Part shown: piece by piece, positions 6,126 through 39,027 of the stretch
Layout: each line of letters begins with the position of its first letter
Position numbering within the stretch: the stretch's first letter is position 1
DNA from: a virus
DNA: 64,000 bases
Direction: 5' to 3' (one strand)
Virus record (IMG/VR): IMGVR_UViG_3300017991_000003
Location: 32,001 to 96,000 of that record
Program-made: the position numbers and the translations under genes
The notes under the pieces: model-generated
The model's input: only the letters and a program-made list of their open reading frames with translations
Told to the model about the DNA's origin: nothing
Database searches by the model: none

Positions 6126-6947
6126 GTGACTTCGCTAGGCGCTCCCGACTTCGGGGACCTGGATACCCAGGTCTTCAACCCGATGATCTACCCCAGGCGG
6201 GTGATCATCGAGGTACTTCGGAACGTCTTCGCGCAAGCCATCTTCACCGAGTTTCCCGGTCAGACGACCAACCCGTTCCTCTTCGTCACCGACGGAGATG
6301 GGGCGATCGACACGTCCAGCAAGCTGGTTATCGCCGACACGTTCAGCGACGAGCTCAGCCGCACGGACATGAGGCCCACGATCCTCGTGGGTCGAGGAGC
6401 CTTCCGGTTCAACGATCTAGCTGTCGACGGGCAGGGGTTTGGCGGGGCAGCGCCCAGCCTACTCCACGCCCCCGACGGCGAGACCGCGGTCAAGCACCTC
6501 GGTCTTGGTGGTTCGACCAAGAAGGTATTTCAGGACATGACCACCATGTCCATCGCCATCAACTGCTACGCACGTCGCAGCCAGGAGGCGGAGTCGTTGG
6601 CCTGGCACACAGCCGGGTTCATCCGCTTCTACGAGTACGAGCTCAAGCAAGGTTCGATGATCAGCAAGATCGAGAGCCCGCTTGTCGGCGACGTAGCCCC
6701 CGCCAACACCGACTCCCAGCACGATCTGTACCTGGTGCCCATTACACTGGAAGTGCACCAGTCCATCACCTGGGTCAAATCCAACGCAGCCACGGTTGCC
6801 CAGATCCTTGCCGGACTGAACCGCCCCTCGGGCAGTCAGTTCCCGCAGTACTACGGATCGCCAGCGACAGTGACCGCCAAGCCCGCGCCGATCTTCGACA
6901 GCCCCAGTCTGTTGGATCGCTGGTTCAACCTATCCCCGTCGCCCTGA
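6126..6947 (+). CDS. Hypothetical structural protein
   Basis: GTG start at 6126 preceded by AGGTGA at 6116-6121; 273 aa with ordinary composition; preferred over the Arg-rich overlapping frame 6119-6952. Confidence 0.6.
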   Translation: MTSLGAPDFGDLDTQVFNPMIYPRRVIIEVLRNVFAQAIFTEFPGQTTNPFLFVTDGDGAIDTSSKLVIADTFSDELSRTDMRPTILVGRGAFRFNDLAVDGQGFGGAAPSLLHAPDGETAVKHLGLGGSTKKVFQDMTTMSIAINCYARRSQEAESLAWHTAGFIRFYEYELKQGSMISKIESPLVGDVAPANTDSQHDLYLVPITLEVHQSITWVKSNAATVAQILAGLNRPSGSQFPQYYGSPATVTAKPAPIFDSPSLLDRWFNLSPSP

Positions 6948-6956
6948 TCTAAGACC

Positions 6957-9900
6957 ATGGCCCTCGAAAATCTCCGTCCCGATCTCAAGATCGAGCAGAA
7001 GTTCGTGACGGCGGCGCCGCTGGTGCCCGCGTCCTCGCTGCCCGTGGTGCTAGTCGGGCTCAACCGCGACCTTCGCTATCGGCAGCTGACCGACATTAGC
7101 GCCTGGAACGGCGGCGCCTCGGTCTCTGATGTTGACTTCCCCGGTTGGCTTGGCGGTGCCGTTGAGGACACGGACCAGACCGATACGTACCTGCGGCCTG
7201 TCGTCGAGGTCTACCACGACACCTACGGGTGGGCGGCCATCACGGACGACGTGACCTTCAAGAACATGGCGACCGCCCCGGCGATGGACATCGCCTCGGG
7301 TGTCGACGCGGTGTTCGAGGTCGCATCTGGCACGACCGGAGCCTTCGCTGTGGACACCAGCGCCCCGGCGGCTAGTGCCTTTACCGACGCCAACGCGGAC
7401 TTCATCGATGACCAGGTGGCAGCTGGGGACGTCATCAAGGTCGATGGGATCGCCACCTACGAGGTCAACTCTCTAGGCCTTGTGAGCGACACCGAGCTCG
7501 AGGTGCGCCGCATGGACAAGGGTCCCGGCACGGCGGGGGCGGCCGAAGCGGCCAAGATCTTCGTCAGCGCGGAGGACACCAACGACGTTCGCACCCTCTA
7601 CAACACCTCGACGGGGTTCACCGCTGCGGGCGGCTTCACCTCCTCGGGTGTGGCTGTGGGCGATCTGGTCCGCCTAGATCACTGGAACATCGTCAGCCAG
7701 GGCTCAGGCATCACCTTCGAGGCGGTGGGCGCGGATACCACGACTGCGAACAACGCCGGCGACACCGCGAGCGCGACCGAGCGCGTCGTGACGCTGCCGA
7801 CCGCTGACGCGCTTACGGCCTGGGACAACACCACTTACACCGGTGGTGTCTTCTTCACGGCCAACGCAGACGGCGACCTGATGCCGGCTTTCTACCTGAG
7901 CCACGCTGTGGCGGGCCCTGAGACTGTGGCCATCGCCACCGACTACGGCTCCAACCACCTGGTGGATACTGAAGACGCGGACTTCGGTGTGAAGTTCCAG
8001 TTGTTCGACTACGTCTATCGCACGGCCAGCGCCAGCACCACGGGTGCTTTCACCGCTGAGAACGCTGACGGCTATCGGACCTTCACCGACTCCTCGGTCA
8101 CGACCTTCAACGGCAGCCCGACTACTGTTCAGCTCGGCGATCACATCGCTATCAAGGACGAGGATGGGATCTACCGCCCGGTCTTCCAGGTCATCGGCTT
8201 TGGTGACGCGGGTAGCCCGGCCAGCGAGAGCCCGGATACGGACGCCACTCTGGCGGTCCAGCAGTTCGGTGACATCCTCGGCTCGGCGGTCTTTGCCTCC
8301 AACGTCGACTATGTGATCCTCGGAGCCGAGGTCGAGCAGGAGTACCTGGGCGCGACCATCTCGGCCGAGAACGCCGACGCCTACGGTGCTACGACCCGCC
8401 TGCTTGAGGCGACCGGTGAGGACTTCAACGCCGATGGCGTGACCGCTGGCGATCTGGTCTTCAGCGACTCTGGCACCCTGATGTTCATCGTGGTGCAGGT
8501 GGGTGACACCGTGAGCCCGCTGACCTACGACACCCTCGTGGTCGTGGATCACCCCAACGCCGGTACTACTCTCGGGACGACCGATACGATCGCTGAGTTC
8601 GGCTACAGCGTCCGCACCTCGGCTCGCTCTGACTTCCAAGTCAAGCGAGTGGTCGACGCGGACACGCTCGAGATCACCGCGCTCTCGACGACCCCGAACG
8701 TGATTCCGGGGACTCGCTCGATCCGCGGCGCTATCTACTTCCAGACGGCTCCCAGCATTGCGGCCAGCCCCGACGAGCTAGGTACCAACCCCGTGCTGGT
8801 GACTGCTGGCGACTCCGACAGCGCCATCAACTACACCATCGAGAAGACCCTGAGCGGGGCCTCTCTCGAGGGCGATGTCTATGTCACCTACGCGGAGATC
8901 CTGAACACGAACAGCGCTTCGCTGCTCAGCTTCAACTCCTCGACCGTCACGGACGTTCTGGGCGACGCGGTCCCGGGTAACCCGCTGGGTCTGGCTGGCG
9001 CCATCGCTGCCCAGAACACCGATGCGACCATGTACGCGATCCAGGTGACCGCGGACACCTCGGCTGCGTGGCAGACGGCTCTCGAGGTCGCCAAGACCGA
9101 CACGGTCTACAGCCTCGTGCCGCTGACCCAGAACGACACGTACCTGACGCTCTTCCAGAGCCACGTGACCACGCAGAGCCTGCCCGACAACAAGCGTGAG
9201 CGGATCCTCTGGCAGTCCAAGTGGTTCAAGACCCAAGTCGACCGCACGTCCTATGACTCCTCGGTGGACACGTCCAACGCCACGGTCAGCCGATCGGCGC
9301 TCGGTGTTCAGACCCTGACGGTCTACAAGGACGTCGTGGCCCTTGGGGTCATCATCGGTGACGAGGTCACCATGACGACCTTCAACGGCACTTCCGAGGT
9401 CTCGGTCTCCGGCCGGATCACGGACATCGACAACACGACGCCGGCCCAACCGGTCCTGACGATGGTGGCGGACGGCAACGTCCCGCTCTCGACCACGGAT
9501 CTGACGGTTCTGACCTACGACATCAAGTCGAAGAGTCTGTCTCAGACGGAGCTGGCCACGTCGGTCACGACCTACCTCACGGCCCTCAGCGAGCGCCGCG
9601 TCCGCAACATCTTCCCCAGCCGCTATCAGGTGACCTTCACCGACACGACGGGGATCTACGACTCGGGCCTCGGCGATGTCGAGGATTACGAGGTCGGTGG
9701 TGAGTACGTCGGAGCCATCATGGCAGCGCTGCGTCAGGCTCGCGGGCCGGCCCAGCCGCTGACCAAGGTTGCCGGCTCGGGTATCCAGCTCGTGATCGAC
9801 CCCTTCAGCGACTCGGTGACTCTGCAAGACCAGATCATCGATGGCGGCGGCTTCTACATCGAGCAGCCGGCTGGTGAAGGCGGTTCGGTCCAGGCGATCC

Positions 9901-12770: not shown

Positions 12771-13619
12771 TCAGAGATTGGGATCGATGTCCTCGAGCAG
12801 CACCCACAGCTCTCGAAGCCCCTCGTTCTCGATCTGCCTCACACGCTCCCGAGTCCGCCGGTAGAAGCGTGCGAGCTCCCCATAGGGGGTCGGGTTCTCG
12901 TGCCCGAACCCGTAGTGCCGGCGGATGATGTCCTCAGCCTCCGGCTTCAGCTGCGCCAGGGCCCAGTTCAAGAGGTCCCGGTTCTCCTGATTGATGACCC
13001 GATCGAGCATCGCCGGGGCCGGTCCTAGCTGAACCCCCTGCGCTGTGTCCTGGGTGAGCCGGCCGCACGCCTCGGTGATCTCGGTGTCCAGGGTCACCAA
13101 CCGACTATCCCGAGCGTGCCTGTACTTCCGGATCTTGTCCGGGTCCCAGCCGAGCTCCTCGAAGATCTCCTCCTCGTCCGGGTAGTAGCCGTTGGTCTTC
13201 AACATCCGGTACGCCTTGGTCTGGTAGTCGGTGACCAGGGACCGGTGGCGAATAGGCTTGGCTGAGAGGTTGCGGTACTCCCGACGGACCTCGGCGTCGA
13301 TCCACCAGACGGCGTAGGTACTGAACTTGACGTGGCTCTTCGTGCCCTTGACGACCCGGTCAAGGTCGAAATCCCTGAGCGCCTTCATAAGCCCCACGAA
13401 CCCCGCGGAGATCATGTCGTGATAGCGCGCGTCCTTGGCCTCGACGAAGCGCTGCACTCGTCGGATTACCAGGCGGACATTGTGTTCGACCAGCCGCTGA
13501 GCTGCGGCATCATCCCCCTCGCGTAGCGCTTTGACGAGCAGCTCGCGTTCTTCCTCCTTCGACAGGACTGGGTGATCAGCTGCCTTGTGTAGGGCGATCT
13601 CGTCGAAGGACCAGTCCAC
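12771..13619 (-). CDS. RNA polymerase sigma factor, sigma-70 family
   Basis: Region 2-like segment (YHDMISAGFVGLMKALRDFD), region 3 and region 4 HTH (RTRERVRQIENEGLRELW). Confidence 0.8.
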   Translation of the reverse strand: MDWSFDEIALHKAADHPVLSKEEERELLVKALREGDDAAAQRLVEHNVRLVIRRVQRFVEAKDARYHDMISAGFVGLMKALRDFDLDRVVKGTKSHVKFSTYAVWWIDAEVRREYRNLSAKPIRHRSLVTDYQTKAYRMLKTNGYYPDEEEIFEELGWDPDKIRKYRHARDSRLVTLDTEITEACGRLTQDTAQGVQLGPAPAMLDRVINQENRDLLNWALAQLKPEAEDIIRRHYGFGHENPTPYGELARFYRRTRERVRQIENEGLRELWVLLEDIDPNL

Positions 13620-14680: not shown

Positions 14681-15208
14681 TCAGTCTTCGCTAGCAGCTT
14701 GTTGTCGACGGACCTCCGCAGATGCAGCGTAGCAGAGCACCATCGCATCCGAGATGTCCTCGTGGGCTTTGGGCACACCATCAGGATAGCCCAAATCGGC
14801 CAAGTCATCGGAAAACCGTTCATTCATTCGAGCCCGCGCCCCGTCCTTATCCTTGGCCTTGACGCGACTGCGGGCCGTCTTAGCTGTGATCAGGACCGGC
14901 TCGTAACCCGCTCGGGCGACCTCCGACATCACGGCCCCGATAGCCATGGCGACCTTGCCCATGGATGATAGGTTCCTGGCGTGCTTGTTGAACTTCAAGT
15001 CCTCGATGATCACGTGATCCGGGTTCCACTTGGCGAGCACCTCCCGCACCCGCTTCCCTAGCTGCCCGATCCGAGCAGCGAAGGTGTCCTTGGCGCGCAA
15101 CCGAAGGAGCTCGACATGCAGCATCTCCCACTCATCGCTCTCATCCATCCGCATCAAGGCCACCCCTGTTTTGAGGCTGCCGCAGTCGAATCCCATTACA
15201 ACGGTCAT
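14681..15208 (-). CDS. RuvC-like Holliday junction resolvase
   Basis: GFDCGSLKTG, HVIIEDL and DAMVL segments align with the RuvC catalytic motifs. Confidence 0.8.
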   Translation of the reverse strand: MTVVMGFDCGSLKTGVALMRMDESDEWEMLHVELLRLRAKDTFAARIGQLGKRVREVLAKWNPDHVIIEDLKFNKHARNLSSMGKVAMAIGAVMSEVARAGYEPVLITAKTARSRVKAKDKDGARARMNERFSDDLADLGYPDGVPKAHEDISDAMVLCYAASAEVRRQQAASED

Positions 15209-15609
15209 TCACGCCCCCCGGCTCCTCGGCCGCGGTTACGGATGGCCCGCTGAATGGCCTCTCGCCGGCTCGGCGGGATCTTGTGCAGGGGGAGCTCGAC
15301 CGGAGCTTCGGGGACCTTCTGGAAGGGCAGGTCACCGAAGATCTTGATCAGGGATCCAAGAACGTCTTGAGCATTCATCGTGTCGAGACGCCCATCGACC
15401 ATGGAGATCGGCAGCTCGAAGGTCATCGGCTGATCGAACGGGGTCAAGTAGTGCATTCGGAGCCCCATGTGCTCCTCATCACCTTCGGGGGCGATGTTCG
15501 TCACGTGACACCAGATGAACCAGCCGGTCACGTGGATACCGGAGGCGCCGAATCGAATGTCCTTGGAGCTGAAGGTCCAGAAAGGCTTAGGAGCGTTGGG
15601 GTTATCCAT
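15205..15609 (-). CDS. Hypothetical protein
   Basis: 134-aa ORF. Confidence 0.55.
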   Translation of the reverse strand: MDNPNAPKPFWTFSSKDIRFGASGIHVTGWFIWCHVTNIAPEGDEEHMGLRMHYLTPFDQPMTFELPISMVDGRLDTMNAQDVLGSLIKIFGDLPFQKVPEAPVELPLHKIPPSRREAIQRAIRNRGRGAGGRE

Positions 15610-15668: not shown

Positions 15669-17387
15669 TCAGATGATCGCGTTCCAGTCGACGATGACAC
15701 CGGCCTCGTCGAGCAAGTCGTAGAACCAGGTCACGACGTGGACGTAAGCACCTAGCGGGTCCTTGGGGTGGCGCTTCTGGGCCTCCTCGCGCTTGGCACC
15801 GAACTCGTCGGTCTTGGCCAGCTTGTGCTTCTTGCAGGTCTGGCCGAGCAGGCTGAGCAGGGCACGCTGCTGAGTGGAGTTGAGCTTCGAGTAGTCAGGG
15901 CGCACGTTCTCGTCGAACGGCTCCTCTTCTTCCTCTTCTTCCTCTTCCTCCTCCTCGCCAGGCTCCTCCTCGTCCTCCTCCTCAAGATCGTCGAGCTCCT
16001 CATCGCTGGGCTCTTCTTCGTCGAGGTCCTCCTCGTCGAGCTCCTCGTCTTCTTCCTCGTCAGGCTCCTCCTCGTCGAGGTCCTCGTCTTCTTCCTCCTC
16101 CTCGTCGAGGTCCTCCTCGTCGTCTAGCTCCTCCTCGAGCTCTTCTTCTTCGAGCTCCTCGAGCTCCTCGAGCTCCTCCTCTTCTTCCTCCACATCAGGG
16201 GCGGAGGCAGCAACCGGAGCCTCCCGCTTGCCGATCATGTCGTCAGGCGGGATAGGGGTGTGAAGAGGGCCGGAGACAGCGATAGGGAACGCGCGGATCG
16301 TGTCCTCGGGAACGCCGAGCGTATCCGCGGCCTCCGCGAGGCTGGTGGCCAGCACGTAGCGCAGCGTGTCGGAGCCGTCCTCGTCTTGGCTGTAGGCCTG
16401 GTACACGGCATGGACCGACGGGAGCCCGATATGCTCTTGCATGTAGTTGGGGTCACCATCGGGCGCGACGAAGACAGCGCTGACGCCCGGGCAGCAACGC
16501 TCAGCCGCTTCTTTGAGGCGCATCAGGCCCACGGCCCGCCACGCATCGTCAGCGCCTTCGGTCAGGTGCGAGGACGCGGCCACGAGGGCCTCGATCATCA
16601 CATCACCGTCGGTCGGCCAGCGGTCAGAGTCGTCAGTACCGGACGCGGCCCGCTTGAGCAGCTCCTGGTAGGAGTAGTAGAGGTCCAGCTGCGGCTGGGT
16701 GAGTCGGAGCTTGAGCTCGCGGTACTTGGCCTCGCCGGGCTCGAGCCCCTCGTCCTCCTCGTCGTTCATGTCCTGGATCGCCTGCTGCACCCGGCGCTTG
16801 AGGTCTGCGGAGCGCAGCGCGTGCGGGTGACCCAGGGGCTCGCAGAAGGGCAGCCACTCGGAGATGTTGTCCTCGTGGATAGCGCCGGCGCGGACGCCCG
16901 GGCTCAGCTCGACAAGCCGGTCCCAGACCACGTGGCGCAGGACGGCGGGGTTCAGGCTCAGCGACAGCAGCATGGCCCACTGGCCTGCTAGCTGGTTGGC
17001 CTTGGCCGGGTTCATGTTGAGCCGCATGTCCGCGACCTGCTCGAAGCTCTCGGCGGCCGGCAGATCACCGACAGGAGCCGCGACCTCGATCCACGCACCT
17101 TCTCGCAGGTTGAACAGGTGGCAGGCCAGCTCAGCAGTCTGAGCGCCTCGGGCCTGCTGGAGCTCGACACACCGGTCCAGACGCTTGATCGCCGGGAGCT
17201 TGCCGGTGCCGGCGAAGGGGGCTCGCTGCCCCTGTAGGAGGTTCTGGGTTGCGTACTCGGCGCGCTCTTGAGCCTCTTCGAGGGCCACCAGTGCGGCGTT
17301 CTCGGAGCCCGGCTGCGGTTGGGTAGTCGGCGCAGCAGCCGCTTTCTTCTTCGTGGCCTTCTTGGCGGCCTTCTTTTTCTTAGCCAT
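15669..17387 (-). CDS. Hypothetical protein with Lys-rich N-terminal tail and long polyacidic tract
   Basis: Start taken at MAKKKKAAKKATKKK (ATG 17385-17387); about 110 residues of nearly pure Glu/Asp/Leu. Confidence 0.65.
   Translation of the reverse strand: MAKKKKAAKKATKKKAAAAPTTQPQPGSENAALVALEEAQERAEYATQNLLQGQRAPFAGTGKLPAIKRLDRCVELQQARGAQTAELACHLFNLREGAWIEVAAPVGDLPAAESFEQVADMRLNMNPAKANQLAGQWAMLLSLSLNPAVLRHVVWDRLVELSPGVRAGAIHEDNISEWLPFCEPLGHPHALRSADLKRRVQQAIQDMNDEEDEGLEPGEAKYRELKLRLTQPQLDLYYSYQELLKRAASGTDDSDRWPTDGDVMIEALVAASSHLTEGADDAWRAVGLMRLKEAAERCCPGVSAVFVAPDGDPNYMQEHIGLPSVHAVYQAYSQDEDGSDTLRYVLATSLAEAADTLGVPEDTIRAFPIAVSGPLHTPIPPDDMIGKREAPVAASAPDVEEEEEELEELEELEEEELEEELDDEEDLDEEEEEDEDLDEEEPDEEEDEELDEEDLDEEEPSDEELDDLEEEDEEEPGEEEEEEEEEEEEPFDENVRPDYSKLNSTQQRALLSLLGQTCKKHKLAKTDEFGAKREEAQKRHPKDPLGAYVHVVTWFYDLLDEAGVIVDWNAII
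15921..16192. repeat. Low-complexity GAG/GAA/GAC codon tract encoding the polyacidic region
   Basis: Plus strand is CTC/TTC/GTC-rich with internal direct repeats. Confidence 0.8.
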
Positions 17388-18429
17388 GGGCGGGGGTCTT
17401 CTTCTTCTTGGTTCTTTTGTAGGGGAAGCAGTCAAGGCGGTTGCGGCATCGCTTGGCCTTGGCGGTGTTGCGGCTAGAGCAGGCCTTCGGGCCAGCTAGG
17501 GGCTGTCCAAGCTCTACGAGGCGATGGACAGAGTCGATGTAGGGGTCGACGACCATGGGCAGGAAGTCGGGGTCATAGGCGATCTCGTAGGCCCGGTCGG
17601 CAAGTCGGTCCCTGTCAAGATATAGCAACGAAGTGCCCTCACAGAGGTCAGGATCTAGCGGAAAGATTCCTTGACGCCCCTGCTCGACCAAGATGGCCGG
17701 GTAGAGCTTGCCTTGGTAGGTGTCCTTCTCCAGAGGGAGCGGGCCCTGCCGGGGCTTGAGCACGAAGGTTCCGGGCTCTTTGCCCCGGACGCGCGACATA
17801 CTGTCGAACTGGTCCCGCTCCTTGCTCTTCATCTCCAGCACTCGCCAGTGCCCGGTGGGCTTGATCCAGATACCGTCAGCACGGCCGCGGATCATCCACG
17901 CGTCACCGCGATTCTTGGGGTCGGGCCGACGAATGCGGATCTCCTCGTAGCGCCATCTGACACGCTCCCGGGCTAGGACCCGATCGCAGTTGTTCTCGTG
18001 GACTACCCCATCCGCATCACGGTAGGCGACGGTGTTGGTGCACACCTCCTCGGGCCTGAACCCTTCGACGACCTGGTGACAGCTCATACACCTCCACAGG
18101 CCCCAGAGGCGCCCGACGTCGCCTGTGATCTCAGGTAGGATCACGGACTGGAAGTGGTCATGAACAGCGTGCCCAGCTGCGAACAAGCGTAGCGCCTGGG
18201 GACTAAAGCCCTGAGCGTCGCCCCACATATCGTGGAGGCGCTTGAAAGCGTCTTGGACCATACACCCGTTGCAGAGGCTGCTTGGGTTGAAGGCTCTGGA
18301 GACATACCCCTCACGCTCTTCTCGACGGAGAAGCGCCTGGTCGATGGCCGGCGTCCAAGACTGATCGGCCTCGACCCTCGTCGTCATCTTGCAGATGAAG
18401 TCGACGATGTCTTGTGTGAAGGTGTTCAC
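17380..18429 (-). CDS. Putative PD-(D/E)xK-type nuclease-like protein with Cys clusters
   Basis: 349 aa; CNGC and CMSC pairs plus D...E-x-K-like RADGIWIK...VLEMKSK; weak assignment. Confidence 0.5.
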   Translation of the reverse strand: MNTFTQDIVDFICKMTTRVEADQSWTPAIDQALLRREEREGYVSRAFNPSSLCNGCMVQDAFKRLHDMWGDAQGFSPQALRLFAAGHAVHDHFQSVILPEITGDVGRLWGLWRCMSCHQVVEGFRPEEVCTNTVAYRDADGVVHENNCDRVLARERVRWRYEEIRIRRPDPKNRGDAWMIRGRADGIWIKPTGHWRVLEMKSKERDQFDSMSRVRGKEPGTFVLKPRQGPLPLEKDTYQGKLYPAILVEQGRQGIFPLDPDLCEGTSLLYLDRDRLADRAYEIAYDPDFLPMVVDPYIDSVHRLVELGQPLAGPKACSSRNTAKAKRCRNRLDCFPYKRTKKKKTPAHG

Positions 18430-18430
18430 G

Positions 18431-18667
18431 CTACTCCTCGTTGAGTCCCTCAGGTGCCCAACTGAACGCGCCTCGGATCTCCCGAGGGGTTGCAGCTTCT
18501 TTCAAGTTGCCGATCTCGGCTACACCCACACGGTCCTCCTCAGGCTGCTCCTTGCCCGGGTCGGCGAGGAGGACTACGTTACCTGAGGGCGATACGAAGA
18601 TGTGGTACGGCTGCTCCGGTTGATCGGCGTAGGCGGCCGCGACCTTGGCGATTAGCTCTTGTTCCAT
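18431..18667 (-). CDS. Hypothetical acidic small protein
   Basis: 78-aa ORF between nuclease-like gene and kinase gene. Confidence 0.45.
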   Translation of the reverse strand: MEQELIAKVAAAYADQPEQPYHIFVSPSGNVVLLADPGKEQPEEDRVGVAEIGNLKEAATPREIRGAFSWAPEGLNEE

Positions 18668-19395
18668 GCGTAGTGTCTCTGTAGGTGGATGAAGGCGAGG
18701 GCTGCGGCTTCGGCAGCGTCGTACTCTTTGTCGATGTACAACCAGTTCTTGAAGCGGTTGTTGAAGGCTTGTCGATCCGGGTTTGACATGGCCCGCGCCA
18801 TCTCGGCCTCAAGCCTCGGGTCCCGAGCGGTCGGATCTAGGTTGTCGCGGCCAGGGCCTAGTAGCCCCTCCAAAGCTATGTAGAGGTGCCTCACGTGCCG
18901 GTGCTGCCCTAGGTCTGTGAAGTGGTCCTCAGGGCCTTGGTGCCCGTGAGATCCGGTCATCACGATCACCTGATCGAAGGACTCGTCTACCAAGGATCTG
19001 TAGGCCGTCCAGATGGCGCGAACCATGGTAGGGCCTCCTTTCATGAACCCTTGATAGATCAACGTGGTCAAGATTGATCGGTCGCGCAGAGCAACAGGGA
19101 TCTCACCTCCAGCTGATACAAACCCGGCCCACTCCTGCACCTGCACCGCTGTCTGTGCCATCCCTGCGATGAACAGAGCGGCGCTGGCCTGAGTACAAGG
19201 GATCTGCGACTCACCCGTACCCCCCGTCGCCTGGCCGTGGAGCACTAGCTCCCGGAGGCCTTGGATGCTATCCCCCGGTTCCCGGAAGACTCGAGCCTTC
19301 CACCCCCCGACGTTGTTGTTGATGTCGTCGCAGAGGGATTGAGCTAGGGTGCTCTTCCCGCTGCCGTCAGGGCCTTCGAGGATGATCTGGTGCAT
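18652..19395 (-). CDS. Thymidylate (dTMP) kinase-like protein
   Basis: P-loop IILEGPDGSGKST and downstream DRS...IYQG characteristic of thymidylate kinases. Confidence 0.65.
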   Translation of the reverse strand: MHQIILEGPDGSGKSTLAQSLCDDINNNVGGWKARVFREPGDSIQGLRELVLHGQATGGTGESQIPCTQASAALFIAGMAQTAVQVQEWAGFVSAGGEIPVALRDRSILTTLIYQGFMKGGPTMVRAIWTAYRSLVDESFDQVIVMTGSHGHQGPEDHFTDLGQHRHVRHLYIALEGLLGPGRDNLDPTARDPRLEAEMARAMSNPDRQAFNNRFKNWLYIDKEYDAAEAAALAFIHLQRHYAWNKS

Positions 19396-19895
19396 CAGGT
19401 GGTCTGGGCGATTACGCGTTGGAGAAGGGAGCCATGAGTCACGACCAGCTCGTGCTTGGCGGTCAGGGGATCCAGCTTGGCCTTGAAGGTCAAGCCAAGG
19501 GACCCGAGCATCCCAGTGCGCTGTCGCTCCAAGTCCTCTTGGATGACCTCTACGGGGATGCGGGTCTCCTTGGTGGTGATGTCGAAGTACCGAAACGGCC
19601 CGTCAACGAACTGCTCGAGCTCCTCAGTCATGGGCATGATCAGGAGATCAGCGGGGAAACCCTCAAACACGCGATACGTGTTGTGGTCCGTGAAGTGGTA
19701 GGCGAGGGCGATGTTCGGGCGCGCTAGCTTGCGCGCGTCTTGCACCGCCTTCTCCCACCACCGAGGCTGGAACCGGAAGTCGGTCCCTGTTCTCGACTTG
19801 GCCTCGACAAACCACCCGTAAGGGGTGCCGAGGTCTCCTCGGAAGAACGAGCCGCAGCCAGATCCGGGGACCCGCTGCAAGCCGGTCTCTCGCAT
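19395..19895 (-). CDS. Hypothetical protein, possible PD-(D/E)xK nuclease fold (start uncertain)
   Basis: GDLGTPYGWFVEAKS resembles a D...E-x-K core; start set at internal Met to avoid overlap with the recombinase gene. Confidence 0.45.
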   Translation of the reverse strand: MRETGLQRVPGSGCGSFFRGDLGTPYGWFVEAKSRTGTDFRFQPRWWEKAVQDARKLARPNIALAYHFTDHNTYRVFEGFPADLLIMPMTEELEQFVDGPFRYFDITTKETRIPVEVIQEDLERQRTGMLGSLGLTFKAKLDPLTAKHELVVTHGSLLQRVIAQTT

Positions 19896-19914
19896 CAGGC
19901 GAAGCTCGTGCGCG

Positions 19915-21525
19915 TCACCCGTCCTCTTGTTCGAGGCCGGCCTCGAGCGCATCGAGGGGGTCACCTCCCTCTGCTTCTTCTGAATCTTCGGCAGCCCCAG
20001 CGGCTGGCTGATGTCCTTTGAGTCGGTCATGGGCTTCGTGAATGAGATCCTGGAGAGGGTCGTCGAAAGGCCCATAGAGATGGGCCTCTGCGTCGAGGTG
20101 GCCTCGGAAGGTCCGCGGCATGATTGCGGCAGCCAGCGGATAGCGCAGGCGATAACCGATGTCGGGCCGGCTCAGGAAGGCCTTGATGTCCGCGATCTTG
20201 GTGAAGGTGCGGCCGAGGATCTCATACCCCCGCGAGGTCTTCTTGAACCACCTGTCATCAGGCGGCAGCTCCCAAGCGCCCTCAGATAGGGCTTTCAGGA
20301 GCTCAAACACGCGCGCACCCTCGTCGGTCTCGCCGGCTTCGTAGTGGACACGGTCAAACAGACGATCCTTGAGGAACAGCCGAGCCTGGGCGCTAGCGTT
20401 GGTGCCGCCCCCGGACGCCTTGTCCTTCTTCATCGTCATCGTCATCTCCGCCATGGCGGCGGGCTCACGGTAGCCGCCGTCCCACGGGTTGTAGCGGGTG
20501 CGGATCTCCATGTTCTGCATGAGCGCGTACTTGAGGGCGTTACCGCCCGACGCGATCTTGGAGGGACCGCCGTAGCCCCCGGGGCCCGACTGGATGTTGG
20601 CGCGCCACTGGTTGGTCTGGATGAACGTGGGCATCACGCCCGACTGGTTCCAGGCCTCGTTTTGCGCGCTGATCAGCTTCGGGTACAGGCGGGACAGCTC
20701 ACGAGCCCGGGACGCGGTCTGCTTACGACCCGCCAGGTCCTCGTCAATCGCAGCCATGGCCACACTGTCGAGGATGATCAGATCGGCAGCGCCGTTCTTG
20801 ATCAGGTGGGAAGAGAGGATCTCGACCTGGTTCAAGGACGTGATGCGGGCCACAGCTACTGTCGAATCCGGGCTGATGAGTAGGCCCTCTTCGACCTCCT
20901 CGTACTCAGCCATCGGATCGCTCATGTCCACACGATCCGCGATCTTGAACCCCCAGGACTGTGCCCATAGCGGGTCGAAGTCACCCTCGACATCGATGAA
21001 GAGGACGGTCGACACATCGTTGGCACCGCAGCCGCAGCGGATCACGTTATCCCGCTCACCCAGGTCATCATGGAAGGTGAGGATCGGAGTCATGCAGCGC
21101 CGGCAAGTGCGCTGGAAGGAGCCGGCCAGTAGGTAGCACATGAGCGACTTGCCCACATGCTCCGGGCCAATGATCTGCGTCCGGGTGCCGATGGCCATGC
21201 GGATGTTCATGTCCATCTCGACCAGTCCCGTGAACAGGAGCCGGCGGCGGAACTCAGCTGCGGCCTGCGTCGCTCGCCAAGAACCCGTGGGCTGCTTGTT
21301 GAGCTCGACTGTCGCAGACTTCATCCCGTCGCTGAACCGAGCGCTGGTGCGTGTGTCGCGCGGGCTCTTCACTCCGGCCGTCAGCGCCCGCTTCGGAGCG
21401 TCGTCCTTGGCTGCGGCCTTCTTGGTCCGCTTCTTGGCCTTCTTCTTGGTCGCCTTCTTCTTGGTGGCCTTCTTGGTCACCTTCTTTGTGGCTTTTTTGG
21501 CGACCTTCTTCTTCTTGGCCGCCAT
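19915..21525 (-). CDS. RecA-like recombinase with Lys-rich N-terminal tail
   Basis: Walker A IIGPEHVGKS, Walker B LIILDSVAMA, GGNALKYA matching RecA GGNALKFYA; N-terminal AKKKKVAKKATKK tail. Confidence 0.6.
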   Translation of the reverse strand: MAAKKKKVAKKATKKVTKKATKKKATKKKAKKRTKKAAAKDDAPKRALTAGVKSPRDTRTSARFSDGMKSATVELNKQPTGSWRATQAAAEFRRRLLFTGLVEMDMNIRMAIGTRTQIIGPEHVGKSLMCYLLAGSFQRTCRRCMTPILTFHDDLGERDNVIRCGCGANDVSTVLFIDVEGDFDPLWAQSWGFKIADRVDMSDPMAEYEEVEEGLLISPDSTVAVARITSLNQVEILSSHLIKNGAADLIILDSVAMAAIDEDLAGRKQTASRARELSRLYPKLISAQNEAWNQSGVMPTFIQTNQWRANIQSGPGGYGGPSKIASGGNALKYALMQNMEIRTRYNPWDGGYREPAAMAEMTMTMKKDKASGGGTNASAQARLFLKDRLFDRVHYEAGETDEGARVFELLKALSEGAWELPPDDRWFKKTSRGYEILGRTFTKIADIKAFLSRPDIGYRLRYPLAAAIMPRTFRGHLDAEAHLYGPFDDPLQDLIHEAHDRLKGHQPAAGAAEDSEEAEGGDPLDALEAGLEQEDG

Positions 21526-21953
21526 CAGGCTCCTTCGTCAGCCCCCTCAGTGAGCTGCTCGGTGTGGAACAGCGGGTCCTTGCCGACCGACTGTAGGACG
21601 CGGTTGAAGATGTCGCGGTTGGCCACGACGCAGCGGTGCTGGAACTCCTCGACGATGCCCTCCATGTTCTCGGCAATCTCTTCCCGGGAAGCAGGCACGT
21701 TCACGGTGACGTGAACCTCATGGCTCGAGTAGGCGCCGTAGACCTCGGAGATGCGGGCGTGGTGGCCGACCGAGATCGATCCGACATTAGCGGGGTTGGT
21801 CATGATGTGGCGGGTGTCGATGATGTGGGTGTTGCTATAGCGGAGGACGTACTTGGTGCGTCCTCGCGGGATGGCTCGAATCGTCACCTCGAGGGTGACC
21901 GGGCGGGCTGTGATCTCACAGCCCTGGATAGTCGATGACATGGCAGCGGGCAT
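21525..21953 (-). CDS. Hypothetical protein (start uncertain)
   Basis: GC3-rich codons checked by hand; the first 38 nt overlap the helicase gene. Confidence 0.5.
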   Translation of the reverse strand: MPAAMSSTIQGCEITARPVTLEVTIRAIPRGRTKYVLRYSNTHIIDTRHIMTNPANVGSISVGHHARISEVYGAYSSHEVHVTVNVPASREEIAENMEGIVEEFQHRCVVANRDIFNRVLQSVGKDPLFHTEQLTEGADEGA

Positions 21954-23379
21954 CCTTGTAGGAGGCTAGCCGGCGGCGCCCGAGCGCGGCCAGAACGGGG
22001 GAGTTGGTGTGGACCGGGTCCACCACGATCGGGACCGGCTTCCCGTCGACCTCTCGCTCGATACGCCCTCGGGTCTGGCGAACATCACGACGGGGAGAGG
22101 CGAGTACAGCGGCATCCTTCCATGGTACATCAAGGGCCTTGTCAGCAATGCCGTAAGTGCAGAAGGTGACCGGCTTGTCGAGGGAGGCGTCCCGGCCGAC
22201 GCGCCCAACCTTGGCATGCTTACCGAAGAACAACCCGCTCGAGCCCGGATGCCGGGCTTCCCATAGCTCGTGCAGGTGGATGAGCTGCTTCTGGAACTGG
22301 CCGAATACCATGACCTGACGCCCCTTTTGGAACAGGTGGCCGACGATGTTAACCAACCAGGCTGAGTACGCAGGGTCAGCGATGACCGTCTGAATGTAGG
22401 CCGTGTAGTTGTGCTTGTCCTTCCAGGCGACGTCCGGGGGAGTCACCATCGGGTTGAGCGGGGGCCGGCCCGGGCAGCTAGTGGGAAAGCCGGCGAAGTC
22501 CGGGCACTCACGGCATCCTGCGAGTGTTGTCATCCCGACCTTCGCCTTGCACCACGCCATCCGGTAGTCGTCGTACTCGACGAGGGTCGTAACTGGGTAG
22601 CGGTAGATCGTGGCAGGGACCAGCTTGGCCGCGGCTTCGACCACGTGGTTACCCAGCGCCGCCTTGAACACCCACTCGAGCCCATCCCGGCGATCCGGGG
22701 TGGCGGTCAGGGCGATGCTCCAGGTGAAGGCTAGGTTCGTGAGGCTGCCGAAAAAGCAAGGTGCTGAGAACACATGCGCCTCGTCGACGAGGAGCATGTC
22801 GAGTTCCATCGGGTCTTCGGCCCACTCTTGTCGCCAGAGGCTCTGACCGACCATGATCGTGAACCGAGCTCGCGTGTCTCGACGCATCTGCCCGTGGCCT
22901 CCGCCGAGGATCTCGACGGTGGCCTCGGGCAGGAAGCGCTCGATCGCACCTTTCCACTGCTCGGCGATGTCGACCTGATCGACCAGCACGCCGACCCGCG
23001 CCGCTTGCAACGCGTCAGCGCAGTAGAGGCCCATGACTGTCTTGCCAGTGCCGCAATCAGCCCGCAGAAGCAGCCCCTCCTTGCGAGGCAGCTCATGTAG
23101 GATCTCACTGACCGGCGTCTTCTGGTTGTCTCTCAGCTCGCCCTTGAACTGCCGCTGTGGGTGCTCTTGGATCGGAGCCCGAGCCGGCAGCGCTCGGGTG
23201 AAGTTCTCTAGCCAGAAGCGAGGTACAAGCAGGGAGCCGTCACTGAACTCATGCCACAACGGGAAGGGCTCTCGATCTCCTTCAGGGCGCGCGATAAGGT
23301 CTTGGTCCCGATCAAAGGGCCACAAGGCAGGATCGCCGAGGATCTCGGCAGGGACGTGGACGAGGCCGCGTAGTTTCAT
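21916..23379 (-). CDS. Superfamily 2 DNA helicase (DEAH-type)
   Basis: Motif I CGTGKT, motif II LLVDEAH, motif III ALTATP. Confidence 0.7.
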   Translation of the reverse strand: MKLRGLVHVPAEILGDPALWPFDRDQDLIARPEGDREPFPLWHEFSDGSLLVPRFWLENFTRALPARAPIQEHPQRQFKGELRDNQKTPVSEILHELPRKEGLLLRADCGTGKTVMGLYCADALQAARVGVLVDQVDIAEQWKGAIERFLPEATVEILGGGHGQMRRDTRARFTIMVGQSLWRQEWAEDPMELDMLLVDEAHVFSAPCFFGSLTNLAFTWSIALTATPDRRDGLEWVFKAALGNHVVEAAAKLVPATIYRYPVTTLVEYDDYRMAWCKAKVGMTTLAGCRECPDFAGFPTSCPGRPPLNPMVTPPDVAWKDKHNYTAYIQTVIADPAYSAWLVNIVGHLFQKGRQVMVFGQFQKQLIHLHELWEARHPGSSGLFFGKHAKVGRVGRDASLDKPVTFCTYGIADKALDVPWKDAAVLASPRRDVRQTRGRIEREVDGKPVPIVVDPVHTNSPVLAALGRRRLASYKDARCHVIDYPGL

Positions 23380-25024: not shown

Positions 25025-26971
25025 CTAGCCGTGGCCGACTTCGTCGCCTGGAACCCGTAGACCGCCGCCCTTAGTCGCCAGGTCTCCGGGGGTCCGATCC
25101 TTGTCTTGAGTGATTTCGGCATCCTCGTTCTCCATATTGATGGCTTGAGGTTCAACACCCATCTCCTTGAGGAAAGGGCTGTCGATGTCGTATGTGGTGG
25201 TGTAGAGGTGGTTGATGGCGCGGGTAATCGCCACATAGGCGAGTCTCCGCTCCTCATCCTCACGGCCGTTCTTGTGTGGAATGAGCCCATCACAGAACCC
25301 GGCGATGAAGACAGTGGGGAACTCGAGTCCCTTGGCCCGGTGAATCGTGAGCAGCTGCACACGGGACCGGCCATCTTGGCGAGACTTGCTCTCCTGCTCG
25401 ACGAGATTGACGTGGGTCAGGAACTCCTTGATCGTGCGGAAGCGCGGCAAGGTCTGCATTAGTACCCGAGACACGGCATCCATCATCTCGTCAGGATCCT
25501 TGCGCTGGTTGCGGGCAGCCAGTTCACGAATGAACCCAGCAAAGCCGAGGCTCTGCCAGATGTGGTGGCCGATGTTGGCCGGCGTGTGACCCTCCTTGAC
25601 CAACATGTCCAGGTCCTGGAGGAGCGTACACAGAGATCCCGCGGCCTGCTGTTGCCGGAACCCTCCCCGCGTAGCTGCCATGACTTGCATGACAGATGCG
25701 GCAGAGCCGTCCGACTTGCCCATGCACTCAGCCACCCAGTCCCGACGCAGAAACCGGTTGGGCTTGTTGAGCACCCACCGCAGCGACGTGATGTCGTTCG
25801 GGCGGGCTGCTAGCCGAAGGTAGCTGACCAGGGTGCGGATCTCGGTACGACCGTAGAACCCGCCTTGATCATCGATGACCTCATAGGGGATCTTCCGCAT
25901 GCTGAGCTCATCCTCGAATGCGCCTGACTGGGCGTTCGTTCGATAGAGCACCGCGATGTCAGAGGCCATACCTCCGGCATCAAGGATCTCCTCGATCCGA
26001 TCGGCCGTGTACTGCGCCTCCTCGACAGGATGCTTCACACGGACCGAGGTGATAGCGCCCTCGCCTGTGAGCGTCGGTCGGAGGACCTTGTCCACTCGCA
26101 GGTCGTTGCACTTGATCAGCTGGTTAGCCGCGTCAAGGATCGGCGCCTGAGACCGGAAGTTCTCTTCCATCGAGATGGCAACCCCTCCGTAGATCTCAGG
26201 GAACTCGATGATGAAACGCGGGGAGCATCCCCGGAACCCATACACCGACTGATCATCGTCACCGACGACCACGAGGTTGCCTTTCTCGAGCTTCTTCAGG
26301 ATCTCGGCCTGCGCCGGGTCAGTGTCCTGGAACTCATCGACCAGGATGTGATCCAGTCGATTCTTGAGCACGTCGACCAGTTCCGGGTCATCTCGGAAGA
26401 GCTGCAAGCAGTCGATGATCATGTCATCGAACAGGTACTTCCCGTTCTTCACGATCGACTGATGGAGCGCATGCAGGAGCTCGACATACCCCGGGCCTAG
26501 GTTCATATGCGCGTGAATGCGGTCAGTCATCGCAAGCCACGCGTCGGGGTGAAACCCGTTGAGCTTGAGCAGGCTGATGTCCCGCAGCATGTCGGCAGGG
26601 ACGCCAACGGCGTTCGGGGTTTCTCTGAGCAGCTCCTCGGCCCACTTGATGAGCAACCACTCCTCCCGACCCTCCACGACTTCGCGGTTTTGGTACTGGT
26701 TCGGGCAGCGGCGATTGAGAACCTTGAAGCAGAAGCTGTGGAAGGTGCCAATGAAGCTGCTGGGGGTGAGGGGCACCCCCACACGCTTGTTGAGACTCTC
26801 TGCCGCCTTCTTACTGAAGGTCAGCACCAACTGGCTCTCGCCAGCCTCGGCATGCTTACGAATGCGCTCGACCAGGACGGTCGTCTTGCCGCTGCCGGCC
26901 ACGGCGAAGATAACGAGGTTCGAGCCCTCGTGATCAATCGCCTTCTTCTGCGCCGCTGTGAAGGAGGTCAA
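25025..26971 (-). CDS. UvrD/Rep-family (SF1) DNA helicase
   Basis: N-terminal AAQKKAI...FAVAGSGKTT Walker A in UvrD-like context; 648 aa. Confidence 0.85.
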   Translation of the reverse strand: MTSFTAAQKKAIDHEGSNLVIFAVAGSGKTTVLVERIRKHAEAGESQLVLTFSKKAAESLNKRVGVPLTPSSFIGTFHSFCFKVLNRRCPNQYQNREVVEGREEWLLIKWAEELLRETPNAVGVPADMLRDISLLKLNGFHPDAWLAMTDRIHAHMNLGPGYVELLHALHQSIVKNGKYLFDDMIIDCLQLFRDDPELVDVLKNRLDHILVDEFQDTDPAQAEILKKLEKGNLVVVGDDDQSVYGFRGCSPRFIIEFPEIYGGVAISMEENFRSQAPILDAANQLIKCNDLRVDKVLRPTLTGEGAITSVRVKHPVEEAQYTADRIEEILDAGGMASDIAVLYRTNAQSGAFEDELSMRKIPYEVIDDQGGFYGRTEIRTLVSYLRLAARPNDITSLRWVLNKPNRFLRRDWVAECMGKSDGSAASVMQVMAATRGGFRQQQAAGSLCTLLQDLDMLVKEGHTPANIGHHIWQSLGFAGFIRELAARNQRKDPDEMMDAVSRVLMQTLPRFRTIKEFLTHVNLVEQESKSRQDGRSRVQLLTIHRAKGLEFPTVFIAGFCDGLIPHKNGREDEERRLAYVAITRAINHLYTTTYDIDSPFLKEMGVEPQAINMENEDAEITQDKDRTPGDLATKGGGLRVPGDEVGHG

Positions 26972-36486: not shown

Positions 36487-39027
36487 TCAGTTGCGCATAG
36501 CTAGCTCTTCTTCCCGCGTCATGACTCGGGAGGTGCTGGGCTGGGTGATCAGCGGACCACGATCGGGGATCAAGGTCTTGCACCACTCCTGCTCCTCCGG
36601 GAGCAGACGCGCACAGCTGGAGGCCAGCTCAACATCGCCGTTCTCGTCGGCTTCGACGAAGTCGGCCCAGTTCTCTGCGGTGAACAACCGATCCTCGCCC
36701 TTGATCCGAGCGAAGAAGGTGCCGACGGGCGGGACGTTGTCATCGCCCTCTTCAGCCCAGTTGTTGTAGCAGATAGAGGTGTCGGCCAGGATCGGGACAG
36801 ACAGCCCGAACCAGTCGTACTCCATGACGTACTTGATGAGCATGGCCGCCTCTTTGGCGAAGCGGATCGGGCACGCATAGATCAGCTCGTCGTGGACCTG
36901 CCCGATCACCCGTAGGCCTGGGTATCGAGGCAGCACGTACTTGCGGATGATGAACATGTTGGCCTTGATCATGTCCGCCGAGGAGCCTTGCACCTTGGCG
37001 TTCAGGATCTTGCCGGGCATGACGTCGTTGTCGTTGAAGTGACGGTGACGTCCGCTGATCATCAGGAAGCTGCGTTGACCTTTCTGCCACTTACCCTGTA
37101 GCGCCTGCATGTAAGCAGGGATGCCGCTGTAGGTCTGGAAGAAGCCATCACGCCAGAGCGCTGCCTTTTCGATGTCGTACTCGCCCTTAGGCGTGAGTAG
37201 CGGCACCATACGGGCGAACTTCTCCGGCCCCATCCCGTAGTTGAAGCCGAAGTTGACGTTCTTGGCCGGCTTCCGCGGGATCCCGAGGCTCTGCGAGGTC
37301 TTGGCGTGAACATCGCCCGTGTGAAACACGAGCCCGTGGCTCGTGATCGTCTCGTGGTAGACGTTGCGTAGGTTGAAGTCGCCAGTGAAGTGAGAGATCA
37401 CTCGAAGCTCGACCTGGCTCTGGTCGCTGACGATCAGGCAGTAGCCCTCAGGTGCCCACTCATCAGGGGGCGGGCACACGAAGACTTCACGTAGCGCCGG
37501 GCCCAGGCCCTGGATCCTCTCGTCGAAGTGCGCGGGCTTTTTGCGGGAAGGGATGTTCTGGAGGTTGGGTCCAGAACTGCTGAACCGGCCAGTATCCGTA
37601 CCGAAGGAGTTGAAGCGACCGTGCACTTGACCATCCCCGGAGTCTTCAACCTTCTCGCCCATGCTTTCGACATAGGTGCTGAGGAGCTTCGAGACAGTTC
37701 GGAAGTTCAGGATGGCCTGCCCGATCGGATGATCGAGCATGCTCAGCGTGGTGGTGTCCGTGCTGATGTACTGCTCCCGGATCTCGTCCGGGATACGGTC
37801 CGGGTTGCGTAGGTCGACTACGCAGTCTTCCCAGAAGATCCGACCGTTGGCAGGGTTGCGCTTCATGTACCCCTGCTCGAGGCACCACTTGACGCCGTCC
37901 TTGGTCAGCTTCGGTAGCGGGATACGCTCCCCGTTGATCCAAGCCCACCGGAACGTGGGAGGCGTCAGGTACAGCGTCTGGAACAGGAGGGTGCAGAGCT
38001 GCTTCGGGCTGTTGGGGTTGAACTCCTGCTTGGCCAGCTCGTAGCAGTGGGAGCGGAACTCCTCGACTAGCGGACGCATGATATTGCCGCGCTTCTTGAG
38101 CTCCTCGAGATCGATCGTCATACCGGCGATCTCCATGCCGATGGTCTGCCACCGGACATCCATCTCGATCTCCATCCACGTACCTGCGCCATCCTTGCGG
38201 ACCTCGGCGAGGAGCTTACGCAGGAGGGGGAACAGGTAGCGGGCGTCGTCGCGGGCGTAGTCTTTGAGGAGCTTCAGAGCCTGCGCGCGCAGGTTGGCGA
38301 TCTTGGTCTCCGCTCGGGCTGTGTGGGCTCGGACGTAGTCCTCGTACTTCCACCGCTCGAGCTCATCAAAGAGTTCATCCCGCCAGGCCAAGAGAGCGCC
38401 ATTCTCCTCTTTCGACAGGTCCTTGCCGGTGATGCCGCGCTCGTCCAACACTTTCTTGCGGATGGCGTTCCAGGACATGGCAGGGTCGTCGAAGGACGGG
38501 TACGGCCGCCACCAGGTCCCAGGCTGGGACCACTTCTCCAGGTTGTCCTTGTGCATGGCCAGTCGCGCGTTAGTCAGATCGATCTCACGCAGGAGCGGAT
38601 TGTCGAGCGCCGCCTCCTCGTAGGTTGTCATCTGCTTACGCAGCCATTTCTGGACCAGCAGCTTGAGGCCCTTGGGACGCTCCTCGTCAACTGCCCAGGC
38701 GTAGCCGAGCGTGTCGAGGCAGCGGGCCTGCCACTCCTCGTACAGCACCATGCCGGCTCGATGGCCGACGATCACGTCGTAGGGGGCGTTGTGCGCCATC
38801 CCGAACAGCTTCGGGTTCGTAGCTAGGCGCTTGAATGTCTCGCACAGCTCAGGCGTGATCTCGAAAGCCCCGGCGCGGTTAGGTGTCGCCAAAGCTAGGA
38901 CGGTGGGTCGCGCCGTCCACGCGTTCTTCGCGTCCTCAGAGCGTCCGGTCTCCGACTCCGTCTCGAAGTCGAACGCAAAGTAGCCCGTCTCGAGGGCGTC
39001 GGCTTCAATCAGATGTAGAGGATCCAT
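36487..39027 (-). CDS. Family A DNA polymerase with 3-prime to 5-prime exonuclease domain
   Basis: Exo I FAFDFETE; motif A SDQSQVELRV; motif B RKPAKNVNFGFNYG; motif C QVHDELI. Confidence 0.92.
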   Translation of the reverse strand: MDPLHLIEADALETGYFAFDFETESETGRSEDAKNAWTARPTVLALATPNRAGAFEITPELCETFKRLATNPKLFGMAHNAPYDVIVGHRAGMVLYEEWQARCLDTLGYAWAVDEERPKGLKLLVQKWLRKQMTTYEEAALDNPLLREIDLTNARLAMHKDNLEKWSQPGTWWRPYPSFDDPAMSWNAIRKKVLDERGITGKDLSKEENGALLAWRDELFDELERWKYEDYVRAHTARAETKIANLRAQALKLLKDYARDDARYLFPLLRKLLAEVRKDGAGTWMEIEMDVRWQTIGMEIAGMTIDLEELKKRGNIMRPLVEEFRSHCYELAKQEFNPNSPKQLCTLLFQTLYLTPPTFRWAWINGERIPLPKLTKDGVKWCLEQGYMKRNPANGRIFWEDCVVDLRNPDRIPDEIREQYISTDTTTLSMLDHPIGQAILNFRTVSKLLSTYVESMGEKVEDSGDGQVHGRFNSFGTDTGRFSSSGPNLQNIPSRKKPAHFDERIQGLGPALREVFVCPPPDEWAPEGYCLIVSDQSQVELRVISHFTGDFNLRNVYHETITSHGLVFHTGDVHAKTSQSLGIPRKPAKNVNFGFNYGMGPEKFARMVPLLTPKGEYDIEKAALWRDGFFQTYSGIPAYMQALQGKWQKGQRSFLMISGRHRHFNDNDVMPGKILNAKVQGSSADMIKANMFIIRKYVLPRYPGLRVIGQVHDELIYACPIRFAKEAAMLIKYVMEYDWFGLSVPILADTSICYNNWAEEGDDNVPPVGTFFARIKGEDRLFTAENWADFVEADENGDVELASSCARLLPEEQEWCKTLIPDRGPLITQPSTSRVMTREEELAMRN

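Follow-up and report, generated by a model that had tools for sequence, protein, structure and literature searches.

Charged segments on two phage proteins

The 64-kb stretch of IMG/VR virus record IMGVR_UViG_3300017991_000003 analysed here (the window, to whose positions all coordinates refer unless another locus is named) carries the genes for two proteins with strongly charged segments, both on the minus strand. Protein A (572 amino acids, aa; 15669-17387) consists of a Lys-rich tail, an N-domain, a polyacidic linker and a three-helix C-domain, and protein B (536 aa; 19915-21525) is a divergent RecA/UvsX-like ATPase. The N-terminal Lys/Ala-rich tail of protein A (17331-17387, minus strand) starts MAKKKKAAKKATKKK and has the sequence MAKKKKAAKKATKKKAAAA, with 9 Lys and 8 Ala in 19 residues. 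The Lys-rich N-terminal tail of protein B, which starts MAAKKKKVAKKATKKVTKKATKKKATKKKAKKRTKKAAAKD, takes up residues 1-41 (21403-21525, minus strand) and contains 21 Lys, 10 Ala and 5 Thr, giving a net charge of +21 and a KKxx repeat about every 4 residues; neither tail contains Pro. The polyacidic tract of protein A, at residues 400-489 (15921-16190, minus strand), is about 80% Asp/Glu and closes with a run of 12 Glu; when the flanking PFDE is included, 76 of 98 residues are acidic. An earlier note on this DNA had located the tract nearly exactly (15921-16192) but had put its length at ~110 residues, whereas it spans about 90-98.

The charged features of proteins A and B are real, and are products of neither chance nor artefact. 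Lys makes up 2.7% of the long open reading frames (ORFs) of the window, and the binomial tail probabilities are 2e-22 for the tail of protein B, 6e-10 for that of protein A and 2e-49 for the acidic tract. In a six-frame scan of the 64 kb, the two tails were the only places with at least 9 Lys in 25 residues, and a single further acidic stretch, at 1693-1827, reached the threshold. AAG accounts for 26 of the 30 Lys codons of the tails, the same preference as elsewhere in the two genes.

The reading frames indicate that both tails are translated as part of the proteins. In the case of protein B, a Shine-Dalgarno-like GAAGGAG (21530-21536, minus strand) lies 4 nt upstream of the ATG, which itself overlaps the stop of the upstream gene (TGATG), and a stop is found 5 codons upstream of the ATG with no alternative start between the two. 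The sole other in-frame Met of protein B is Met68. A conserved segment with the motif (S/T)PRD...F..G, which joins the tail to the RecA core (21301-21402, minus strand) and was recognised from the alignment and the ORF of locus L001, is located upstream of this Met, and the homolog P0002 has Leu at the Met68 position. The public gene call for another homolog, P0004, starts at the Met68 equivalent and is apparently tail-less; since its ORF in L001 continues upstream through the tail to MATPKKKAAKKAAKK (MATPKKKAAKKAAKKSTKR), with the same stop/start overlap, the tail-less start is a gene-calling choice. The ATG of protein A shares bases with the stop codon of the preceding exonuclease gene (ATGGCTAA), both in the window and in L005; a conserved PTTxPQPGS motif stands directly after the tail and before any other ATG, and the gene callers of two public assemblies chose the same ATG. 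The assembly can be compared with two further records. The sequence of L003, an IMG/VR contig, is identical to that of the window, and L002, an independent ENA assembly, shows no mismatch over 21,620 bases and a single 9-nt indel inside the Glu run. Two ways in which the features could have been spurious, named in the earlier note, are thus rejected: the ribosome-binding site, the stop/start overlaps and the conserved residues upstream of Met68 speak against tails lying upstream of the true starts, and the presence of the same sequence in L002 and L003, apart from the one 9-nt indel, speaks against a sequencing artefact in the acidic tract. The Lys-rich tails that the note had described on the two proteins lie within the reading frames and are retained in homologs.

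Architecture and evolution of the two proteins

Profile matches and motifs place protein B in the RecA superfamily, although it is very divergent and no orthodox RecA. The Pfam RecA score is 32.2 bits (cut-off 27), with Rad51 the only other Pfam match, phrog_97 (UvsX-like) matches at 2.4e-18, and the best matches in a PDB profile search are all RecA at about 1e-9, but the score for the NCBIfam RecA equivalog, 29.6 bits, is far under the cut-off of 325. The Walker A (GPEHVGKS) and Walker B (LIILDS) motifs align to GPESSGKT and VIVVDS of RecA, the strand bearing the catalytic Glu (FIDVEGDFDP) aligns to FIDAEHALDP, and an L2-like loop, NQWRANIQSGPGGYGGPSKIASGGNALKY, aligns to the L2 loop and GGxALKF region of RecA. 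These core motifs and the L2-like loop are common to protein B, RecA and T4 UvsX, from which protein B differs by its 41-residue Lys tail, by a Cys4 insertion in the core and by a different C-terminal region of ~100 residues. The insertion (CRRC...CGC, about 28 aa; 21028-21105, minus strand) stands out against E. coli RecA and is placed between Walker A and the IDxEG strand; its Cys141, Cys144, Cys164 and Cys166 are invariant, it is kept in the relatives P0070 and P0071 and in the L013 homolog, and we consider it a putative zinc ribbon within the RecA core. The insertion is retained in relatives down to 37% identity. Protein B ends in an acidic C-terminal tail with a net charge of -11 (19918-20010, minus strand), and E. 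coli RecA has an acidic C-terminal tail that resembles it.

The subfamily of protein B is small, with only six clusters found among 5.8 billion proteins. Low-complexity words dominated the protein searches, in which 8000 candidates were scored, and trimming the queries to their cores yielded just two more RecA-like proteins, both distant. All four lineages with 60-64% identity, P0002, P0003 and P0004 among them, carry the Lys tail, this count depending on the P0004 ORF in L001 being re-read to its upstream ATG; the genomes of these lineages have a guanine-cytosine (GC) content of 57-62%. The next relatives, P0070 and P0071, at 42% and 37% identity and in the syntenic loci L004 and L007, are without a long Lys tail; their N-termini are acidic in one case and short and mixed in the other. 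The absence of the long tail from the 42%- and 37%-identity relatives marks it as a clade-specific addition, which agrees with the fusion to a RecA-like ATPase that the earlier note had described. Our literature searches found no report of a Lys-tailed RecA or UvsX.

Protein A has no match in Pfam, NCBIfam or PDB sequences, and family profile searches of these collections gave noise only. A profile search of 1.84 billion representatives returned 64 relatives, 50 of them below 1e-10, and 47 representatives form the basis of all family statistics on tails, linkers, tree and structure-prediction alignment. The closest homologs are P0005-P0008. A family with unannotated function, phrog_17202, matches 20 of the 47 members, with a best value of 2.9e-12, and leaves the window protein itself unmatched. 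AlphaFold2 (AF2) modelled protein A with a mean predicted local distance difference test (pLDDT) score of 84.8 when given the 47-sequence alignment, compared with 46.8 for an earlier alignment of 5 sequences. In this model the tail, residues 1-20, has low pLDDT (53-75). The conserved N-domain that follows (residues 20-395; 16203-17330, minus strand) is mostly helical with a small sheet over residues 20-380 and carries a net charge of about -24. Within the acidic tract, residues 399-425 are modelled as an E/L-rich helix and residues 428-488 as disordered, with pLDDT below 50, so that the tract may begin with an amphipathic acidic helix and not be purely disordered. A Leu recurs every 3-5 residues in its opening ~25 residues, EEEEEELEELEELEEEELEEEL (16110-16190, minus strand), and the helix has a pLDDT of about 85. 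The C-domain (residues 498-572; 15672-15896, minus strand) is conserved in homologs and is predicted to form three helices at 498-565, with pLDDT of 87-97 over residues 491-560 and a drop toward the C-terminus.

Structure comparison revealed a weak similarity of the N-domain to the ParB/KorB-like helix-turn-helix (HTH) fold, and with moderate confidence we propose that the N-domain contains a ParB-like HTH. Foldseek of the model against PDB and BFVD returned nothing significant, Pfam ParBc matches none of the 47 family members, and the GxxRxxA box of the ParB CTPase domain was not seen in the sequence. Compared with the HTH domains of ParB and KorB, the N-domain of protein A is larger and acidic and has no sequence-level match. 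Several longer family members (P0015, P0028, P0036, P0038, P0042, P0021 and P0039) contain an extra small domain in the linker, flanked by acidic stretches, with the motif ...VxxVNxE...VK...GRxRPKxVxFxDV and an SH3- or Tudor-like look; it is missing from the window protein.

A feature overlooked in the earlier note is that the Lys tail is recurrent across the protein A family. A Lys-rich N-tail (at least 5 Lys) occurs in 20 of the 47 representatives, including one complete 8-member clade, and the neighbour-joining tree requires at least eight gains or losses. A dependence of the tails on genome GC was rejected, as the family showed no link to an amino-acid proxy of GC. The linkers of the family vary from 9 to 205 aa and from +8 to -78 in net charge; they are mostly acidic, and the window protein is the most acidic extreme. 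Even among the closest relatives the linker charges are -29 (P0006), -3 (P0007) and +4 with AKK repeats (P0008). A balance between tail charge and linker acidity was likewise rejected for the family (Spearman -0.18, p 0.23). Tandem Repeats Finder detected degenerate repeats of 9-54 nt in the acidic tract and of 12-51 nt in the tail of protein B. Together with the 9-nt indel in the Glu run, these repeats bear the sequence signature of replication slippage and not of a sequencing artefact.

The related loci were also scanned for Lys-rich stretches, with a threshold of 8 Lys in 20 residues for L001-L011 and of 7 in 20 for the distant L013. At the higher threshold, the window-clade loci L001-L003, L005 and L006 and also L010/L011 had such stretches only in protein A and in RecA-like proteins, and four loci had none. 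At the lower threshold, L013 has a Lys tail on protein A, a Lys-rich C-tail on RuvC and Lys-rich stretches on several other ORFs too. The C-tail of this RuvC (L013, 12605-12715) is Lys/Arg-rich, RRKKAKKKSKKPKSRRKNEQRKKTEKK, and the RecA-like protein of the same locus (6561-7976) is basic at both ends, in a short N-tail and in a C-terminal patch. Across seven lineages, Lys-rich segments are found on both the RecA-like protein and protein A in five and on neither in two, a count that treats L006 and L008 as one genome, as inferred from their shared sample. From these distributions the tails appear as evolutionarily labile add-ons that are yet kept across lineages ~60% identical.

The gene module and its surroundings

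Proteins A and B belong to a recombination block on the minus strand. Its first gene encodes a ResIII helicase (21916-23379), which is followed by a 142-aa ORF and the gene for protein B. A Holliday-junction-resolvase-like ORF (19395-20075; phrog_2002, phrog_244) overlaps the gene for protein B at its 3′ end, and a thymidylate-kinase-like gene separates it from a Cas4/RecB-like exonuclease gene (17380-18429; phrog_2506, phrog_1706, phrog_1990) directly upstream of protein A. Directly downstream of protein A are a 134-aa ORF and the RuvC resolvase gene (together 14681-15609), RuvC (14681-15208) being the last gene of the block, so that with the resolvase-like ORF the module holds two resolvase-type genes. 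RuvC stands downstream of protein A, after 1-2 small ORFs, in every locus that reaches past A. The exonuclease carries a short basic C-terminal tail, KRTKKKKTPAHG (17383-17418, minus strand), partly overlapping the start of protein A, and a basic C-terminus of this enzyme is seen in three lineages, with KRTKKTSNG in L005 and KRPPKKNK in L001. A few genes downstream of RuvC, a sigma-70 family factor with regions 2, 3 and 4 is encoded (12771-13619, minus strand), and it occupies the same position in each related locus long enough to reach that region.

The window has a GC content of 60-65% and carries phage replication genes, among them those for DNA polymerase A (36487-39027), a DnaB-like helicase (50199-51593) and a UvrD-like helicase (25025-26971), as well as genes for a Toprim protein and a tail-fibre-like protein. 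In related phages, precomputed Pfam Intein_splicing matches mark inteins in the DNA polymerase A of L004 (885-3848) and in the UvrD-like helicase of L006 (1093-3861). A 223-aa ORF on the plus strand (1159-1830) has a Pro-rich middle, a SAP-like motif, YNDLRAKAKRHDVSAGGGRDAIIERLLAL, and no Pfam match; it ends in an acidic C-terminal tail of 45 residues (1693-1827) that closes with ILDPLNDL. The same sequence as the window is present on public metagenomic contigs of 91.6, 175 and 193 kb, which points to a large uncultured phage as the source. Searches of 50,697 deposited phages at the DNA level and by tblastn, with A, B, P0011, P0037 and P0015, gave no match, and scans of IMG/VR returned the window's own contig or nothing. 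No relative of the RecA-like protein was found in a scan of 185,579 genomes, which therefore gave no clue to the host, and no tRNAs were found in the window.

Possible roles of the charged segments

Our results suggest that the Lys tails probably serve as disordered polycationic DNA tethers and that the acidic tract is a slippage-expanded linker, maybe with an autoinhibitory effect. Two DNA-transaction proteins of a replication/recombination module would have acquired Lys/Ala/Thr-rich disordered N-tails, and these would act as sequence-independent electrostatic tethers that raise DNA affinity and residence time and so favour filament nucleation or the stability of a complex. The acidic tract would be the extreme, slippage-expanded form of the variable, usually acidic and disordered linker of the family, joining the N-domain to a small three-helix domain that we propose binds a partner. 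Most likely it would be a flexible, DNA-repelling spacer, although it may also bend back onto the basic tail or HTH region of the same protein and act as an autoinhibitory flap. Such a fold-back is possible by analogy: the acidic tails of HMGB1, T4 gp32 and T7 gp2.5 act as autoinhibitory flaps. A DNA-binding context is provided by the RecA core of protein B, by the ParB/KorB-like similarity in protein A and by the exonuclease, RuvC, the second resolvase-like gene and the helicases nearby. The tether interpretation of the tails is drawn from two precedents, namely that the lysine repeats of actinobacterial (Streptomyces) TopA stabilise the enzyme-DNA complex and give processivity (PMC5714199) and that DNA-binding proteins are enriched in Lys-rich low-complexity regions (PMC6821194). 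Two observations weigh against the combined picture. The net charge of protein A is -91, of which the N-domain contributes -24, which is unusual for a DNA-binding protein, and tail charge and linker acidity do not co-vary in the A family, so that a compensating or autoinhibitory pairing of tail and linker is not required.

Several other explanations of the charged segments have to be considered. The tract, and to a lesser extent the Lys tails, could be near-neutral products of slippage in a region that needs nothing but disorder, and would then have no specific function. The degenerate tandem repeats in the tract and in the tail of protein B, the indel polymorphism within the Glu run, the huge variation in linker length and charge and the eight or more tail gains or losses would all be expected of such products. 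We nevertheless hold this to be unlikely, as the Lys tails are kept in frame in all four lineages of protein B and in the 8-member A clade despite the high GC content and the rarity of Lys, the tails are not scattered at random but sit on DNA-transaction proteins of the module, and the linkers are predominantly acidic instead of random in composition. A role of the tails as localisation signals that send the proteins to phage DNA, the nucleoid or a compartment made by the phage is quite improbable: their occurrence on recombination proteins of the same module and their co-occurrence by lineage point to a shared driver, but no compartment-forming genes were identified in the window, and these data do not distinguish nucleoid targeting from non-specific DNA binding. 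The earlier note had suggested that the acidic tract could act as a DNA mimic or as a chaperone for basic proteins, a suggestion that the homologs do not bear out. The family linker is short, neutral or basic in them, and because the tract is the extreme of a variable linker, a DNA-mimic, anti-restriction or chaperone role is no property of the family. Even for the window protein, anti-restriction or anti-defence mimicry in the manner of Ocr or ArdA is very improbable; the high negative charge density and the phage origin would suit it, but the tract, a disordered linker inside a conserved module protein, is no folded mimic, it is missing, short or basic in homologs, and no anti-restriction family matched in Pfam or PHROGs (the PADLOC and anti-defence libraries were not searched). 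That mis-annotated starts or assembly artefacts underlie the segments is scarcely credible, since the public P0004 call at Met68 stands against a ribosome-binding site, stop/start overlaps, the Leu of P0002 at that position and three agreeing assemblies.

A more far-reaching explanation would be a polyelectrolyte partnership, with the poly-Glu/Asp tract of protein A as binding partner both of A's own tail and of the polylysine tail on the RecA-like protein. In the way that prothymosin-alpha or nucleoplasmin deals with H1 and histones, the tract would then chaperone, regulate or scaffold the recombinase, either holding it away from DNA or gathering it into a condensate. The two charge blocks are indeed parts of one conserved gene module, their charges are comparable in size (+21 and about -76), the Lys-rich segments of the two proteins co-occur by lineage (both in 5, neither in 2), and AF2 places a confident amphipathic helix, rich in E and L, over the first 25 residues of the tract. 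However, lineages with a Lys-tailed recombinase can have neutral or basic A linkers (-3 in L001, +4 in L006/L008 and 0 in L013), there is no family-wide correlation between tail and linker charge, and the treatment of L006 and L008 as one genome, on which the lineage count depends, comes from their shared sample alone. We therefore consider such a partnership improbable. A broader version is just as improbable. In it, the Lys tails of the RecA-like protein, of protein A and, in a relative, of RuvC would form one electrostatic assembly system together with the poly-Glu/Asp tract, and protein A would be a histone-chaperone- or prothymosin-like partner keeping the recombinase in a disordered complex of high affinity, or in a coacervate, on phage DNA. 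The result would be a membrane-less recombination/replication factory whose strength would be tuned by rapid slippage in tract length.

Tethering of the enzymes to DNA by their Lys tails has its nearest parallel in the C-terminal domain of actinobacterial TopA (Streptomyces/Mycobacterium), which is also a Lys/Ala-rich disordered appendage on a DNA enzyme, varies in length among relatives and is followed by acidic residues; it is the part that raises processivity (PMC5714199). The tails described here differ in being N-terminal, Pro-free, phage-encoded and attached to a RecA-family ATPase and an A-family protein. The tails of HupB/HupS and Ku are further actinobacterial examples of lysine repeats (in part from PMC6821194). 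A Lys/Ala-rich composition and repeat-like periodicity are shared with H1, Chlamydia Hc1/Hc2 and Pseudomonas AlgP as well, and Hc2 shows variation in repeat number (PMC2848022). The likeness to H1 and Hlp that the earlier note had seen holds for the Lys/Ala/Thr composition and ends there, as a Pfam scan detected no linker-histone or HU domain; in comparison with H1, both homology and a winged-helix globular domain are absent, the tails measure 19-41 residues against ~100, and they are attached to enzymes, unlike the stand-alone H1-like chromatin proteins. Basic and disordered acidic elements are combined in T4 gp32 (acidic A-domain, basic N-terminal B-domain), T7 gp2.5, single-stranded DNA-binding protein (SSB) and HMGB1. 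The acidic segment of protein A is in contrast internal, far longer at ~90 residues and unconserved in homologs. An identity of protein A as an SSB-type protein was rejected, given its mainly helical model, its internal tract and the lack of an OB fold, HMG box or SSB family match.

Charged disordered tails that tune DNA enzymes are well known in eukaryotes and Actinobacteria, and the tails described here extend this principle to phage recombination systems, in which such tails are barely documented. Two groups of proteins are defined by our analysis: a RecA-like subfamily, not described before, that is marked by a polylysine tail and a Cys4 insertion in the core, and a syntenically conserved phage A family in which Lys tails and strongly charged linkers come and go fast. 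A major concept would be changed only if the polyelectrolyte partnership between the acidic tract and the Lys tails proved true. The natural series of variants, with tails present or absent and linkers from +8 to -78, offers test material for recombinase nucleation and complex assembly.

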